A DNA stretch of 64,000 nt. Origin: Eubacteriales bacterium. GTDB lineage: Bacteria > Bacillota > Clostridia > Oscillospirales > CAG-382. A program made the translations under genes and the position numbers. The stretch covers positions 3,574 through 67,573 of the forward strand of contig JAZSQJ010000015.1 of the NCBI GenBank assembly GCA_045537905.1, read 5' to 3'. Below the pieces are notes generated by a model. The model saw nothing but the letters and a program-made list of their open reading frames with translations, was not told the origin of the DNA and ran no database searches. This document shows, one piece after another, positions 38,695 through 44,538 of the stretch (position 1 is the stretch's first letter; every line of letters starts with the position of its first letter).

Positions 38695-39639
38695 CTAGTC
38701 ACAGCAGGGGTCTACTTTCTTAGCCTTCTTGACCTCGGGAGCGGGGGAGGTTACGTCGCCCAGTCCTGTAGTTTCGGAAAACAAAACGTTTGCCTTGGTA
38801 GCGTTGACTGCATCGGTAGGAACGATAATCTTAGAAGCCTTGCCGTTAGACATAGCAACCAAAGCCTCGTACTTCTTAATCTCAAGCACTGCCGCATCTG
38901 CTCCTGCCTCTTTCAGTGCACGCAGACCGTCAGCCTCTGCCTTTTTAGCAAGGTAAATGGCTTTAGCTTCACCCTCTGCACGGGCAATACGTGCATCACG
39001 CTCACCCTCAGCAGCAAGTATCATTGCCTGCTTTTCACCCTCGGCTCTGGTAATAGAAGCCGCCTTGTGACCTTCAGCCTGCAACAGGGTTTCACGGCGG
39101 TCACGCTCTGCCTTCATCTGCTTTTCCATTGCGTTTTGTATCTCGGCAGGAGGAATGATATTCTTCAGCTCAACACGGTTTACTTTTATGCCCCACTTAT
39201 CCGTAGCCTCGTCAAGGATGGCGGTCATCTTTGCGTTGATGGTATCACGGGAGGTAAGGGTGCCGTCCAGCTCCAGCTCACCAACTATGTTACGGAGTGT
39301 GGTAGCGGCAAGGTTGGAAAGGGCAGAGATAGGGTTTACAGCACCGTAAGCGTAAAGGTTAGAGTCGTAAACGGCAAAATAAACCACGGTATCGATCTGC
39401 ATAGTAACGTTATCCTTGGTGATAACGGGCTGAGGAGGGGAGTCAAGCACCTGCTCCATCAGCGTAACCTTTTTTGCAACCCTGTCAACAAAGGGAACGG
39501 TTACGTGAAAGCCTGCACCCCACGTGGTTCTGTATTTACCCAGACGCTCGATAACGTATTCGTGGGCTTGGGGTACGATTTTTGCATTTACAATAATGAT
39601 AATAAGTAAGATAACGACTGCAATAATAGCAAATTCCAT
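38695..39639 (-). CDS. SPFH/Band 7 (stomatin/prohibitin-like) membrane protein
   Basis: The ATG at 39639 has a GGAGAG RBS. There is an N-terminal anchor helix, then IVPQAHEYVIERLGKYRTTWGAGFHVTVPFVDRV and an EA-rich coiled coil, as in stomatin-like proteins. Confidence 0.85.
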   Translation of the reverse strand: MEFAIIAVVILLIIIIVNAKIVPQAHEYVIERLGKYRTTWGAGFHVTVPFVDRVAKKVTLMEQVLDSPPQPVITKDNVTMQIDTVVYFAVYDSNLYAYGAVNPISALSNLAATTLRNIVGELELDGTLTSRDTINAKMTAILDEATDKWGIKVNRVELKNIIPPAEIQNAMEKQMKAERDRRETLLQAEGHKAASITRAEGEKQAMILAAEGERDARIARAEGEAKAIYLAKKAEADGLRALKEAGADAAVLEIKKYEALVAMSNGKASKIIVPTDAVNATKANVLFSETTGLGDVTSPAPEVKKAKKVDPCCD

Positions 39640-39769
39640 AATATTCTCTCCTTTTTGTTTTATTACAATCATATTATACAGCAGGGAAGAGAAAAATGCA
39701 ATACATAATTCTTTCCATAAGCAAAAAGCATCTGCCCCCACCAAGCTTGGTCGATGCAGATGCTTAAAC

Positions 39770-40282
39770 TTATTTTTTCTTTTTGGGTTTCAAACGTTTT
39801 ACTCCCCGTTCCTTCAACAGCTTCTTAAACCTTTTATAGTTTGTAAGGCTGTTACTTATACGCATAGGGAGCCCCTTATCAAAATACAAAAGTATCGTAT
39901 ACTCTTCCTCAACATAGCCCGAGGTGTCTCCGTACCGGCTTGTGTCTATCCGGTATTCCCCCTCGGTATGCTTCAGTCTGTAAGCCCTTGCCTTGCTCCA
40001 TTCCTTTTTTCGGCAGTACAGATACAAACAGCGTTTTTCTATATACTCTGCCGTAACCGTAACCTTGTAGCTTTTCTTAAATATCTTATGCAGTACGGAG
40101 AAAAGGGCAAAGGGGACAGCAATATAGTACACGTAGAGAATGTTTTGTGCAAAGAAAGCCCAACCACACACAAAAACCGCAAAAAACCAAGCTATAAACC
40201 GTAAAACCACGTCAAGATCGGTTGTTTTACATTCAAGTACCAATACGTCTTGTCTTTCGTCCACAAAATCACCTCGGCGCAT
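39770..40282 (-). CDS. hypothetical 2-TM membrane protein
   Basis: Its start overlaps the stop region of the upstream fusion gene (TAAAAATG). It has two TM helices, a soluble basic C-terminal domain and a KPKKKK tail. Confidence 0.55.
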   Translation of the reverse strand: MRRGDFVDERQDVLVLECKTTDLDVVLRFIAWFFAVFVCGWAFFAQNILYVYYIAVPFALFSVLHKIFKKSYKVTVTAEYIEKRCLYLYCRKKEWSKARAYRLKHTEGEYRIDTSRYGDTSGYVEEEYTILLYFDKGLPMRISNSLTNYKRFKKLLKERGVKRLKPKKKK

Positions 40283-40284
40283 TT

Positions 40285-42744
40285 TTACTGTTTAAGTCCT
40301 AAAATCTCAGCAGACATATCACGCATCTTGTATTTAAGAATTTTACCTGCCGCATTCATCGGGAACTCCTTCACAAACAAAAAGTATCTGGGCACCTTAT
40401 GTCTTGCGATAGAAGCGTTACCGTACTCCTTCATTTCTTCCTCGGTAGCTGTCTCACCGTCGTGGAGTATCACCCAGGCACAGCATTCCTCGCCGTACCT
40501 TTCGTCGGGTACGCCAACAACCTGTACGTCACGCACCTTGGGATTGGTAAGATAAAACTCCTCAATCTCACGGGGGTAAAGGTTTTCACCGCCACGGATA
40601 ATCATATCCTTAAGTCTGCCCGTTACCTTGTAGTAACCGTCGGGAGTACGGCAGCAGATGTCACCGCTGTGAAGCCAGCCGTCGGCGTCGATGGCTTGTG
40701 CGGTAGCCTCAGGCATTTTGTAATAGCCCTTCATTATGTTAAAGCCGCGGGCAACAAACTCGCCGCTCTCACCGTCGGGAAGCTCCTCGCCTGTTTCGGG
40801 GTCTATAACCTTACACTCTACACCGGGGAAAGGACTGCCAACGGTTTCAACACGGTGGTCAAGGTCCTCGTTAACCTCGCCCATAGTACAGCCGGGGGAA
40901 GCCTCCGTCTGCCCGTAAACGGATATAATCTCCGTCATATTCATCTCGGCGGCGGCACGCCTCATCAAATCGGCAGGGCAGTTAGCACCAGCCATAATAC
41001 CCGTACGCATATAAGAGAAATCGGTCTTTGCAAAATCCGGGTGTCCAAACATAGCAATAAACATAGTAGGCACGCCGTTAAAGCAGGTTATATGCTCGTC
41101 GTTTACACAGGCAAGGGAGGACTTGGGAGAGAAATAGGGAATAGGACACAGGGTACCGCCGTGGGTCATAGTGGAGGTCATAGAAAGCACCATTCCGAAG
41201 CAATGGAACATAGGCACCTGTATCATCATACGGTCAGCAGTAGAAAGATCCATACGGTCGCCTATGGTCTTACCGTTGTTTACGATGTTGCGGTGGGTAA
41301 GCATAACGCCCTTGGGAAAGCCTGTAGTACCGGAGGTATACTGCATATTGCAAACGTCATCAGGCTTAACAAGGGAAGCTCTTCTGTAAACCTCCTCACG
41401 GGGTACCAGGGAAGAACGTGCCATCATCTGCTCGAAGGAGAGACAGCCTTCCATAGAAAAGCCAACGGTAACTACGTTGCGAAGGAAGGGCAGGTTTTTG
41501 GAATACAGCGCCTTACCGGGGGTAAGACCCTCCAGCTCGGGACAAAGCTGTTTTATAATCTCCTTATAGTTGATATCCTTGCAGAACTCAATCATCACCA
41601 GAGTATGGGTGTCGGACTGCCTTAAAAGATATTCAATCTCGTGTATCTTGTAAGCGGTGTTTACGGTTACAAGCACGGCACCGATCTTTGTGGTTGCCCA
41701 AAAGGTAATAAACCATTCGGGCACGTTGGTTGCCCATACAGCCACGTGGTCACCCGCCTTAACGCCTAAGGATATAAGGGCGGCGGCACACTTGTCCACG
41801 TCACGGCGGAACTGCTCGTAGGTCCTGGTATAGTCCAGGGTGGGGTACTTAAAGGCATACTGGTCGGGGTATTTTGTTGCCATGGTGTCAAGCACGTCGG
41901 AGAAGGTAGCGTCAATAACGTCGTACTTCTTCCAAACGAAGGTGCCTGTTTTTGCCCTGTTGTAGTAAACCTTATCGGTTTTCTTTTTATCACGGGCAAG
42001 GGAAGAGATATAGTTGGTAAAATGGGTAAGCACTATATCGGCATCGTTAATCTCCTCGTTCCAGGCGGCACAGATAAAGCCGTCAAAGTTAAGGGAGGAG
42101 AGGGCATCGAGAATCTTTTCCACAGGCAGCTCACCCTCACCGATAAGCACGGTTTTGCCGTCCTTCATATCCCCAAGACGAACGTATTTAATGTATGCGC
42201 CAAGGGTTTTGATGGTGGTCTCTGCAGTTTCACCTGCAGAAAAATAGGTGCCTCTTATATTCCAGGATGCGCCGAGCACAGCCGAGGAAAAGAAGTTTAT
42301 TATATCAATAACCTTTTCCGTGTCAGACAGGTATCCGATAGTCTCCAGAAGTATGCCCACGTCCAAAGTCTCGGCACGCTTAATGGCGTTGCCCAGCTTT
42401 TCCGCAAGCAGCTCCTTGGATACCTCCTTTTCCACACGGACGATAATATTGGCAATGCCTGCGTTTGCCGCCATTTCCACGTATTTAAGTATGGCGTCGG
42501 CACTTGCCTCCTCGGTCTCTACGGAGTAGGGATAGCTCAGTGCAGAAACGGTAAGCCCTCTGTTTATAAGCTTTCTCTTGGAGTCAGCAACACGGTCACG
42601 ACGCAGTATGCTGTCGTGGTGCTGATTGCGTTCCTTTATTGCATCGTAAATCTCAAAGCCCTCAAAGCCGTAGTCAAAGGCGTAACGGCACAAATCAATA
42701 AAAGAGGGACGATTTACAAATTTTGTTGAAAACACTATTTTCAT
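40285..42744 (-). CDS. fusion protein: xylose-isomerase-like TIM barrel (sugar phosphate isomerase/epimerase family) + AMP-dependent acyl-CoA synthetase/ligase
   Basis: The N-terminal ~270 aa show the AP_endonuc_2/TIM pattern (FEGFEIYD..., ILLETIG..., YVRLGD...). The C-terminal ~520 aa carry adenylation motifs YTSGTTGFPKGVMLTHRN, WLHSGDICCRTPDGYYKVTGRLKDMIIRGGENLYPREIE and AGKILKYK. Confidence 0.85.
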   Translation of the reverse strand: MKIVFSTKFVNRPSFIDLCRYAFDYGFEGFEIYDAIKERNQHHDSILRRDRVADSKRKLINRGLTVSALSYPYSVETEEASADAILKYVEMAANAGIANIIVRVEKEVSKELLAEKLGNAIKRAETLDVGILLETIGYLSDTEKVIDIINFFSSAVLGASWNIRGTYFSAGETAETTIKTLGAYIKYVRLGDMKDGKTVLIGEGELPVEKILDALSSLNFDGFICAAWNEEINDADIVLTHFTNYISSLARDKKKTDKVYYNRAKTGTFVWKKYDVIDATFSDVLDTMATKYPDQYAFKYPTLDYTRTYEQFRRDVDKCAAALISLGVKAGDHVAVWATNVPEWFITFWATTKIGAVLVTVNTAYKIHEIEYLLRQSDTHTLVMIEFCKDINYKEIIKQLCPELEGLTPGKALYSKNLPFLRNVVTVGFSMEGCLSFEQMMARSSLVPREEVYRRASLVKPDDVCNMQYTSGTTGFPKGVMLTHRNIVNNGKTIGDRMDLSTADRMMIQVPMFHCFGMVLSMTSTMTHGGTLCPIPYFSPKSSLACVNDEHITCFNGVPTMFIAMFGHPDFAKTDFSYMRTGIMAGANCPADLMRRAAAEMNMTEIISVYGQTEASPGCTMGEVNEDLDHRVETVGSPFPGVECKVIDPETGEELPDGESGEFVARGFNIMKGYYKMPEATAQAIDADGWLHSGDICCRTPDGYYKVTGRLKDMIIRGGENLYPREIEEFYLTNPKVRDVQVVGVPDERYGEECCAWVILHDGETATEEEMKEYGNASIARHKVPRYFLFVKEFPMNAAGKILKYKMRDMSAEILGLKQ

Positions 42745-42755
42745 AAGTCTGCTTA

Positions 42756-44141
42756 TTACTCCTCTTCAAACACTATTTTGTTCAAAGCGTTTATATAGGC
42801 TCTGATACTGGCGGCAACGATATCGGTAGAAATGCCGTTACCCGAATAAAGCTTGCCGTTATTGCGAAGCTTAACGAGGGCACTACCCAAGGCATCCTTA
42901 CCTTCGGTAACAGCCTGTATCTGGAAATCGTCCAGCTCGTAATGGTGACCTATGCACTGCTCGATAGCACGGAAGGCAGAATCTACGGCACCGTCACCCA
43001 TACTAACGCCGTATATAAGCTCACCGCCGCACTTAAGTGTTACCTGCGACATAGAGCTGGTGACGTTACTGCAGGTGGTGGTATAGCTTTCAAGATGGTA
43101 GGTGGAGGGAGCCTGCATAGCGTAGCTTGCTACAAGTGCGTCAAACTCCTTGGCACCGATAGCACCCTTCTTTTCACAAACCTTTATCAAAGCCTTGTGT
43201 ACGTTACCGCAGTCAACCTCAGAAAGGTCATAGCCTAACACGGCGGCAGTTTGTGCAACCTGTGCAATACTGCAGTCGGAGTCCAGCAGTATCTTCTTGC
43301 TTTCGCTGACTGTCTCGTCAGTATAAACCTGATGGCTTATGCTGGAAAGCATATCCTCAATGCTGGTGTGTATCTTGGTGCCGTCCAGATTGCTCTGGGC
43401 GTCAATCTCCGCACCGCAAACCTTAAGTGCGTCAGACAGCTTGCCTGTAAGCAGAACGTCCTTGCCTGCCATAGCGCATTTTACGCCGTCAATACCTTTA
43501 GCAATGCACGTAATAGCAGAGGAAACCGCCATGCTTATCTTATCGGAGGTCTGAATATATACGGGCACGTCAACGGCGGCCTTAACCTTTTCAGCCAGTG
43601 CAGCTATACTTTCGGGCAGAGAAATACCCGCATCGTCACAAAGGGTAACAAGGGTAGCACCCTTTTCAACAGCCTCTTTAGCCGCAGCAATCAAAAAGTC
43701 CTCATCAGCACGGGTAGCGTCAAGGGCGGCAAACTCAACGTCCTCGGTAAGTCCCTTAGCAGCCTTAACCAGCTCGCCTATCTTTGCAAGCATCTTGTCG
43801 CTTTTAAGATGGTAAATATATTCCATCTGAACGGTAGAAACGGGCAGCTCTACCTGTAAACGGGGATTTCCGGCGCTTTTAATGCACTCAAAAGCATCAA
43901 CCACGGAGGATACCGTAAAGCCTACGGGTATAGCAAGGGTAGCGTTTTTAACCTTTTGTGCGATGGTTTTATAAATAATACCGTCTTCACGAAGATTCTT
44001 AACAGGTGCAAGCTCAACGGCGTCTACACCCAACGCAGCCGCACAAGCGGCAATCGCAGCCTTTTCACGGAACAGCAGGGAAACCTCGCTGCTTCCTCCA
44101 AGCTTCTTAAGCGTGATATCGGTAACTTTAACGTTTCTCAT
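42756..44141 (-). CDS. 2-isopropylmalate synthase/homocitrate synthase-like protein with LeuA allosteric (dimerisation) domain; catalytic motifs degenerate
   Basis: The HMGL-like barrel is recognisable (ALDATRADEDFL, LCDDAGISLPES), as is the C-terminal LeuA_dimer-like region (GDGAVDSAFRAIEQCIG...QIQAVTEGKDALGSALVKLRNNGKLYSGNGISTDIVAASIRAYINALNKI). However, DTTLRDGEQ is TDITLKKLGG and the HxH motif is IQTSDK. Confidence 0.7.
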   Translation of the reverse strand: MRNVKVTDITLKKLGGSSEVSLLFREKAAIAACAAALGVDAVELAPVKNLREDGIIYKTIAQKVKNATLAIPVGFTVSSVVDAFECIKSAGNPRLQVELPVSTVQMEYIYHLKSDKMLAKIGELVKAAKGLTEDVEFAALDATRADEDFLIAAAKEAVEKGATLVTLCDDAGISLPESIAALAEKVKAAVDVPVYIQTSDKISMAVSSAITCIAKGIDGVKCAMAGKDVLLTGKLSDALKVCGAEIDAQSNLDGTKIHTSIEDMLSSISHQVYTDETVSESKKILLDSDCSIAQVAQTAAVLGYDLSEVDCGNVHKALIKVCEKKGAIGAKEFDALVASYAMQAPSTYHLESYTTTCSNVTSSMSQVTLKCGGELIYGVSMGDGAVDSAFRAIEQCIGHHYELDDFQIQAVTEGKDALGSALVKLRNNGKLYSGNGISTDIVAASIRAYINALNKIVFEEE

Positions 44142-44196: not shown

Positions 44197-44503
44197 AAAA
44201 AACGCCCTCGTCTCCTTGTTCTTTGCAAAGAGACGAAAACGCATTAACCCACAGGGGGTATATTCCGTTTCCGCGGTACCACTCTTTTTCGTCCCTCAAA
44301 GGAACGCACCTTAGATGCCACCACATCTTAACTCTGTAACGGGAGTTCCCGTCTGTCACTACCTTCTACCGACGGTGATAAAAATCGCAACAGCCGCTCC
44401 GCGGTGAGTTCAGCAAAGCTTTCCCGGCGTTTCACAGCAACCAACGCCTCTCTCAAAGGTGAAATCATTCGCTTACTATTCCGCATCTCTGCGTTTATCA
44501 ATG
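44197..44503 (-). promoter_or_regulatory. T-box riboswitch leader, predicted Leu (CUC) specifier, with terminator/antiterminator
   Basis: Reading the minus strand gives the expected elements. Stem I has GCAGAGATGCGG..AATAGTA on the 5' side. There is an AG-bulge/distal loop GAGAGAGGCGTTGGTTGCTGTGAAACGCC. The specifier-loop 3' side is GAA-CTC-A (CTC at 44406-44408). The conserved T-box sequence is AGAGTGGTACCGCGG (44271-44285). A 12-bp terminator stem CGUUUUCGUCUC/GAGACGAGGGCG plus UUUUUU lies at 44197-44241. Confidence 0.85.
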
Positions 44504-44509
44504 TGTTGC

Positions 44510-44538
44510 ATTTTATCACAGCTTTTTTTGTTTGTCAA
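44510..44538 (-). promoter_or_regulatory. putative sigma-A promoter of the T-box operon
   Basis: On the minus strand: TTGACA (44533-44538), 17-nt spacer, TAAAAT (44510-44515). Confidence 0.6.

Follow-up and report, generated by a model that had tools for sequence, protein, structure and literature searches.

A leucine T-box operon of gut Clostridia carries a TIM-barrel/acyl-CoA ligase fusion that is a candidate for isovalerate activation in leucine synthesis

Fibre-degrading bacteria of the rumen and hindgut need branched-chain volatile fatty acids, which are hence fed to dairy cattle, and the carboxylation of isovalerate to leucine has been known through labelling since the 1960s. Which gene might open this route, by activating the acid, is the question raised by a locus in an Eubacteriales bacterium (GTDB lineage Bacillota; Clostridia; Oscillospirales; CAG-382). 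We analyzed 64,000 nucleotides of its assembly GCA_045537905.1 (contig JAZSQJ010000015.1, positions 3,574 to 67,573, forward strand), hereafter the window, in which one gene joins a xylose-isomerase-like TIM barrel to an adenylate-forming acyl-coenzyme A (acyl-CoA) ligase. The original prediction, made from the letters of the window, was that this fusion is a leucine-starvation-induced ligase for the isovalerate-to-leucine route. We propose that the fusion is indeed a leucine-starvation-induced isovalerate-CoA ligase that feeds reductive carboxylation to leucine, and we give this reading a probability of roughly 0.62. The coordinates of all features are collected in Table 1.

Three Pfam domains were found along the fusion protein, as expected from the earlier claim of a barrel and a ligase in one open reading frame: AP_endonuc_2 (PF01261; residues 20-229, 57.6 bits with a cut-off of 31.1), AMP-binding (PF00501; residues 287-675, 319 bits with a cut-off of 29.9) and AMP-binding_C (PF13193; residues 726-801, 61.2 bits with a cut-off of 24.5). 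The ligase motifs A3, A8 and A10 that had been reported were all located, and A5 too: the A3 P-loop reads TSGTTGFPKG (residues 470-479), A5 reads YGQTE (residues 610-614), the A8 hinge, of the GRxxD type, is GRLKDMIIRGGENLYPREIE (residues 709-728), and A10, read off the sequence, is PMNAAGK, including Lys801. By these Pfam scores and core motifs, the fusion is an acyl-CoA ligase of the ANL superfamily, with a predicted thioester-forming activity. The gap of 11 nucleotides that had been described between the fusion and an upstream gene resembling 2-isopropylmalate synthase (IPMS), here called LeuA-like, was likewise found, and the ribosome-binding site of the fusion, GAGGAG, sits within the last codons of the LeuA-like gene.

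An assembly artefact, a possibility raised together with the original prediction, was rejected, as the fusion recurs as a single intact frame of 810-940 residues across genera. In a sample of the window's family, matches to the barrel were found in 93 of 121 genomes and in 15 of 15 genera, nearly always inside such a frame, and in a class-wide sample the fusion was found in a frame of this size in approximately 120 of 300 genomes. The same three domains are found together in more than 120 protein clusters at 86-90% identity, with source names that read just 'AMP-binding protein'. Moreover, a scan of named genomes detected a relative in at least 596 species-level genomes, the best 80 of which are all uncultured metagenome-assembled genomes from the guts of goat, sheep, cattle, buffalo, yak and deer. 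According to the identity of their barrel to that of the window protein, relatives were grouped into a close tier (51-84%), a middle tier (31-36%, by BLASTP) and a distant tier (approximately 29-32%).

We then focused our attention on the leader of the operon. The leucine control claimed for the fusion was confirmed at the sequence level, since a T-box (RF00230), a leucine specifier, a promoter and an intrinsic terminator are all present ahead of the LeuA-like gene. The specifier is the leucine codon CUC in the context GAA-CUC-A, the T-box sequence is AGAGUGGUACCGCGG and the T-box bulge reads UGGU; antitermination by uncharged tRNA-Leu is thus predicted. T-boxes are known to sense uncharged tRNA, and in all verified cases their specifier corresponds to the amino acid that the downstream gene serves (PMC2494555). 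A tRNA-Leu(GAG) was not found in the assembly, which has just 35 tRNAs and misses several essential ones. In one gut metatranscriptome library, short, near-identical, low-depth contigs lay within both genes, which is no proof of a transcript given that DNA carry-over is possible. Among 20 loci of the family, the LeuA-like gene lies directly upstream of the fusion in 16, and a T-box above the gathering score lies ahead in 12, including all 10 close-tier loci; the CUC specifier was read in all 12 related leaders checked by eye. Regarding the 80 named loci, all 75 that were long enough had the LeuA-like gene directly upstream, and a T-box preceded it in 69 of 69, with CUC called in 60 by a simple pattern that failed on most of the remaining leaders.

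To what extent the host genome (1.88 Mb, 96% complete) encodes the isopropylmalate pathway was evaluated by searches with curated models. The only match to leuA was the LeuA-like gene itself, leuB and leuC were not found (the best matches resemble isocitrate dehydrogenase and aconitase, respectively), and ilvC and ilvD gave no match in searches that were positive in 14 of 14 control genomes. In addition, no butyrate kinase was found above the cut-off, so that no kinase/phosphotransacylase route of acid activation was seen in this genome. A similar picture emerged in the relatives. All 27 close-tier genomes of the family match leuA models at the LeuA-like level only (approximately 1e-30 to 1e-37), with both short-form and long-form IPMS absent, and the 30 family genomes with leuA above the cut-off carry a distant-tier fusion or none. 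LeuA matches of approximately 180 bits in other genera were considered as LeuA-like and rejected, being true long-form IPMS (PRK03739, 748 bits vs 455). In the class sample, the close tier comprises 34 genomes from 13 families, none of them with IPMS above the cut-off; 30 of the 34 have no IPMS-family match at 1e-48, as compared to 210 of 300 in the whole sample. These counts are reported without statistics, because related genomes are not independent.

The LeuA-like protein was itself rejected as a 2-isopropylmalate synthase. It scores far under every LeuA cut-off (at best 223.8 bits vs 532), matching HMGL-like with 90 bits and LeuA_dimer (PF08502) with 107.6 bits, and two motifs of the enzyme are lost, TLRDGEQ reading TLKKLGG and HxH reading QxS. 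This loss is common to all 17 orthologues, in which the barrel is left without catalytic or metal residues. Yet the open frames of the orthologues are intact and full length, at 39-79% identity, and the C-terminal allosteric/dimerization domain is their most conserved region, which leads us to regard the LeuA-like protein as a maintained pseudo-enzyme that, with its regulatory domain retained, may act as a leucine sensor.

As for the later steps of the pathway, the window had been said to contain no oxidoreductase gene, which agrees with the annotated part of it, and VOR and IOR genes were found on other contigs of the genome. These encode a three-subunit oxidoreductase whose alpha subunit matches VorB (476 bits vs 399) and an IorA/IorB pair (693 bits vs 651), to which a NifJ-type PFOR at a contig edge can be added. 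Of 27 close-tier genomes, 25 have a VorB match that exceeds the curated cut-off, and the other two are 58% and 84% complete. Two genera mostly without VorB still carry the operon, and in both (loci L045 and L041; C, G and L numbers are our own labels for contigs, genomes and loci) the gene directly after the fusion encodes a NifJ-type single-chain 2-oxoacid:ferredoxin oxidoreductase (OFOR; approximately 1,700 bits). Locus L045 has a leucine T-box in front, and L041 has none at the gathering score. A search of the neighborhood for oxidoreductases, as the original prediction had suggested, places one beside the fusion in relatives. In another relative (L044), the gene directly after the fusion is IlvE (483 bits vs 307).

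Four T-boxes in total were detected in the host genome (Table 1), at most one of which precedes an aminoacyl-tRNA synthetase gene. The phenylalanine T-box ahead of a PaaK-type ligase, taken together with IorAB on contig C58, looks like a phenylalanine-starvation-induced phenylacetate-to-phenylalanine route; in relatives, phenylalanine T-boxes precede PaaK and an ACT-pair protein. No description of T-box control of PaaK was found in the literature searched. In two relatives, isoleucine-type (AUC) T-boxes precede a fusion of 755-788 residues between a helix-turn-helix (HTH)-cupin part and a ligase that matches MbcS best (L032:2701-5312 and L039:1989-4550), with the HTH-cupin part looking like a DNA-binding sensor. 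Furthermore, the tryptophan T-box with its lone trpB suggests indole-to-tryptophan salvage.

Taken together, the leucine T-box, the missing isopropylmalate pathway, the presence of VOR, the OFOR and IlvE linkage in relatives and the parallel phenylalanine and isoleucine T-box ligases lead us to read the fusion as the activation enzyme. In the mechanism that we propose, uncharged tRNA-Leu would allow read-through of the T-box into the LeuA-like and fusion genes, and the ligase would then, at the expense of ATP, form the CoA thioester of a short branched acid, which is most likely isovalerate (3-methylbutyrate). A ferredoxin-dependent 2-oxoacid oxidoreductase (VOR in the host genome) would reductively carboxylate isovaleryl-CoA to 2-oxoisocaproate, which an aminotransferase would convert to leucine. 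The host's genes for such a route would be those of the ligase, VorB (with the stop codon described below), IOR and a weakly matching class-IV aminotransferase. Hence, the role originally predicted for the ligase is upheld as far as genomic context is concerned, and its substrate is what we infer from that context. That rumen bacteria carboxylate isovalerate to leucine has been documented (PMC7356843, citing Allison 1962 and 1966), and the same paper also cites labelling of leucine from isovalerate, of valine from isobutyrate and of phenylalanine from phenylacetate. A 2020 paper assumes that the activation step is performed by a promiscuous acetyl-CoA synthetase (PMC7709123), and in the literature searched, to which access was partial, no gene was assigned to the activation of isovalerate.

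The placement of the ligase half among known families was also investigated. Its best NCBIfam match is PRK12583/NF009233, 'fatty acid CoA ligase family protein' (residues 277-817), but membership was rejected even for this closest family, as it scores 670.7 bits where the curated cut-off is 832. Membership of MbcS (NF047394, cut-off 850 bits) was rejected as well, this model being outside the 25 best NCBIfam matches, the lowest of which reaches 249 bits; other ligases of the clade score approximately 450 bits against the MbcS model. The nearest solved chains are 8weu and 8wev (fatty-acyl/feruloyl-CoA synthetase) and FadD13 (3r44), and, whatever the tier of the fusion, the ligase half keeps 67-94% identity. 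It has been reported that MbcS activates 2-methylbutyrate and isobutyrate and barely isovalerate, with a KM above 500 uM (PMC10026030), so that a separate ligase is to be expected for isovalerate, and a distinct ligase lineage under the leucine switch is what a scheme of three acids for three amino acids predicts. In this clade, the MbcS-like ligases are those under isoleucine-type T-boxes. We also observed in the host genome an MbcS-like ligase (457 bits, best family) two genes upstream of a class-IV aminotransferase, on the same strand and with no T-box (C54:10701-13859; L052:3702-6860), which together could serve the branches from isobutyrate and 2-methylbutyrate.

Regarding the N-terminal barrel, its AlphaFold2 model (pLDDT 87.5) superposes on UlaE, ketose 3-epimerases (DPEase), AsbF and IolI with template modelling scores of approximately 0.65-0.73. 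Identity in this fold search was just 12-17%, so that a characterized subfamily cannot be named, and no NCBIfam subfamily was matched. The original prediction had the barrel add a second activity, which is unlikely in the window protein because three of the four ligands of the E-D-H-E metal site are replaced: E134 is kept, and D, H and E have become N162, R189 and A227, replacements that are fixed in 30 full-length close relatives. The full site is kept in the middle and distant tiers. Despite the loss of its metal site, the barrel is under purifying selection, with a ratio of nonsynonymous to synonymous substitution rates (dN/dS) of approximately 0.10 vs 0.04 for the ligase half, rough values from 8 usable pairs with dS near 1. 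Its role in the close lineage is probably structural, docking or ligand-binding rather than catalytic.

Several findings weigh against isovalerate activation for leucine synthesis. Neither the barrel nor the LeuA-like protein has a role in the simple isovalerate pathway, no substrate is defined for the closest family of the ligase, whose cut-off it does not reach, and no substrate measurement for the ligase or a close homologue was found in the literature. The two conserved TIM-barrel modules, the full metal site of the middle and distant tiers and the lack of a family-defined substrate would all suit a ligase that uses some other acid, related to leucine or not, with the LeuA-like protein and the barrel performing unrecognized chemistry and leucine being obtained by a route without isovalerate. 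We consider this unlikely, given that the LeuA-like barrel has no catalytic or metal residue in any of 17 orthologues, that three of the four metal ligands of the fused barrel are gone in this lineage with the ligase half still 84-94% identical, and that every other piece of the isovalerate route is present or linked. Two of those pieces call for caution in the host genome. The vorB gene (C78:77601-78647; L054:5599-6669) contains a single in-frame CAG to TAG change at codon 311, which encodes Gln in two genomes of the same genus; it may stem from the assembly or from strain variation, or it may be true damage to an enzyme that the proposed pathway needs. Moreover, the sole class-IV aminotransferase of the genome matches D-amino-acid transaminase best, below the cut-off.

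The distribution of the fusion also contains counter-evidence. Distant-tier fusions occur in genomes that possess a complete leuA, and none of the four loci examined had a LeuA-like neighbor, so that the ligase may have started out with a broader role, not necessarily bound to leucine. Likewise, the exclusion between the operon and IPMS is not absolute, as two middle-tier genomes (G019 and G048) have the operon plus a true long-form IPMS, and four of the 34 close-tier genomes of the class sample (G284, G392, G340 and G263) have mid-scoring IPMS-family matches. The distant forms, the precedent of MbcS in Staphylococcus and the finding that rumen cocci put branched acids into lipids besides amino acids (PMC7709123) would agree with a ligase that makes primers mainly for branched-chain membrane fatty acids rather than for leucine. 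This is improbable, since the T-box specifier matches the amino acid served in every verified case (PMC2494555), the IlvE and OFOR linkage in relatives points to amino-acid synthesis, and the module complements the loss of IPMS. Still less probable, to the point that we give it hardly any weight, is that the unit is the remnant of a decaying leu operon, in which a dead leuA is followed by chance by an unrelated ligase: the LeuA-like protein has indeed lost its catalytic residues, and a leucine T-box before leuA is an ancestral arrangement in several phyla (PMC2494555), but the two genes are intact neighbors in 75 of 75 loci, and at least 13 families have the module. Furthermore, the LeuA-like frames are full length, at 39-79% identity and with a highly conserved regulatory domain, and the fusion has a rough dN/dS of 0.04-0.10. 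Overall, activation of isovalerate for leucine synthesis is the reading that we retain.

If the fusion is such a ligase, its partner may also find an explanation. We put forward, as a tentative idea that we hold more doubtful than the isovalerate reading itself, that the dead LeuA paralogue, which sensed leucine for the lost pathway, now serves as a regulatory subunit of the ligase with which the replacement begins. Leucine would be bound through the allosteric domain, the ligase would be feedback-inhibited or scaffolded, and the degenerate barrel would serve in docking or in transmitting the signal. A predicted complex between the LeuA-like protein and the barrel (residues 1-255 only) scored 0.02, with the mark at 0.32, a value that speaks neither for nor against the idea. 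If the idea were true, leucine supply would be controlled twice, through tRNA charging at the RNA level and through free leucine at the protein level, and the ACT protein beside the PaaK ligase under the phenylalanine T-box would be an analogous phenylalanine sensor.

Some observations concern the spread and the surroundings of the module. Members of at least 13 families carry the close form (68-78% barrel identity), while other genera of the window's own family have only forms of approximately 29-38% identity; such a patchy distribution suggests that the module spread horizontally, or that ancient paralogues were lost differentially. In two relatives, a gene of approximately 270 codons for an Amidohydro_2 protein (PF04909) lies directly after the fusion (L039:4576-5403 and L040:5796-6605), a family that includes reversible non-oxidative decarboxylases. 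A gene for an M24 Xaa-Pro-type peptidase follows distant-tier fusions with an intact metal site and no LeuA-like neighbor (L048:6574-7653 and L049:4325-5422).

At the window locus, the fusion stop was said to abut a small membrane protein gene. The adjacency holds, and no terminator-like site was seen between the two genes, which are probably co-transcribed, but the small gene is not a conserved member of the module, as it was found in 0 of 100 related loci. An SPFH gene follows, which was present in 1 of the 100 related loci, at an unrelated position. Both were rejected as parts of the module and, not being conserved beside the fusion, are local passengers. The longest frame of the SPFH/HflK-like gene has a TTG start and 35 odd extra residues; translation probably starts instead at the ATG of MEFAIIAVV, where the membrane anchor begins.

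Table 1. Features of the leucine T-box operon in the window (window coordinates) and T-box units of the host genome.
Feature	Position	Strand	Description
Promoter	44510..44538	-	sigma-70-type TTGACA-17-TAAAAT, extended -10 TG; 11/12 consensus matches, pattern match only
T-box leader	44250..44498	-	RF00230, full-length model match, 111.1 bits vs gathering 93
Intrinsic terminator of T-box leader	44202..44242	-	17-bp stem, then T-run, TTTTTTGTTTT
LeuA-like pseudo-enzyme gene	42756..44141	-	461 residues; DRE-TIM barrel and LeuA_dimer regulatory domain
Fusion open reading frame	40285..42744	-	819 residues, ATG start; TIM barrel and complete adenylate-forming CoA ligase
Xylose-isomerase-like TIM barrel, N-terminal part of fusion	41980..42744	-	residues 1-255, degenerate metal site
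Linker between barrel and ligase	41890..41979	-	residues 256-285; AlphaFold2 pLDDT below 50 for residues 253-285
Adenylate-forming acyl-CoA ligase domain	40288..41889	-	residues 286-819, PRK12583-like
Small protein gene	39770..40282	-	170 residues, two hydrophobic stretches; 2 nucleotides past fusion stop; no Pfam family
SPFH/HflK-like gene	38695..39744	-	longest open reading frame
Leu (CUC) T-box unit			LeuA-like and fusion operon
Phe (UUC) T-box unit	C56:22426-24079 (L050:8427-9803)		PaaK-type ligase, 533 bits, best family
T-box unit, probably Asn			591-residue gene, then apparent gat genes (judged by size and order only)
Trp (UGG) T-box unit	C64:9388-10933 (L051:2717-3934)		lone trpB

The building-block classes found here (T-box, ANL ligase, xylose-isomerase-like barrel and LeuA regulatory domain) were known already, as was the biochemical route. 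The novelty lies in a candidate gene for activating the acid, in the architecture of the fusion, in its pairing with a dead LeuA and in the T-box control of CoA ligases. In the literature searched, to which access was partial, no T-box-controlled CoA ligase was found, and CoA ligases are unmentioned in a survey of T-box regulons (PMC2494555). The locus thus offers a specific, very widespread and clonable candidate for the activation step, with a built-in regulatory readout in its leucine T-box. With its sister phenylalanine and isoleucine switches, it would add acid-CoA ligases to the known T-box cargo of tRNA synthetases, transporters and classical biosynthesis genes, and it also provides two maintained pseudo-enzyme domains.

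When compared with known systems, the module is closest in physiology to the isovalerate carboxylation pathway of rumen bacteria, with which it shares the ruminant gut, the conversion of a branched acid and CO2 through a 2-oxoacid to leucine and, here, an isopropylmalate pathway that was not found; that pathway is known from labelling and cell extracts, whereas our candidate gene is known from sequence alone. As in the leucine T-box leaders of leuA and ilv-leu operons, the riboswitch class is the same, the specifier is CUC and a LeuA homologue with a regulatory domain comes first, but here LeuA is dead, the other leu genes are absent and what the switch controls is a CoA ligase. MbcS of Staphylococcus aureus (PMC10026030) is likewise an ATP-dependent member of the ANL ligases through which short branched acids are salvaged from the surroundings; it differs in belonging to another ligase lineage, in having neither an N-terminal barrel nor a T-box, in serving lipid synthesis and in taking isovalerate very poorly. 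PRK12583, the best family match over the ligase half, and the nearest solved chains 8weu, 8wev and 3r44 have the core motifs in common with it, but none of these relatives has the N-terminal barrel. That barrel, in turn, has the fold and the PF01261 membership of ketose 3-epimerases, UlaE and AsbF, and differs from them in the loss of three of four metal ligands and in the attached ligase. Finally, the PaaK/ACT/IOR route from phenylacetate to phenylalanine resembles the leucine module in that an amino-acid-specific T-box drives a ligase, with a small protein of an amino-acid-binding type alongside in relatives, and it differs in the ligase subfamily (AMP-binding_C_2) and in having an ACT partner instead of a LeuA-like one.

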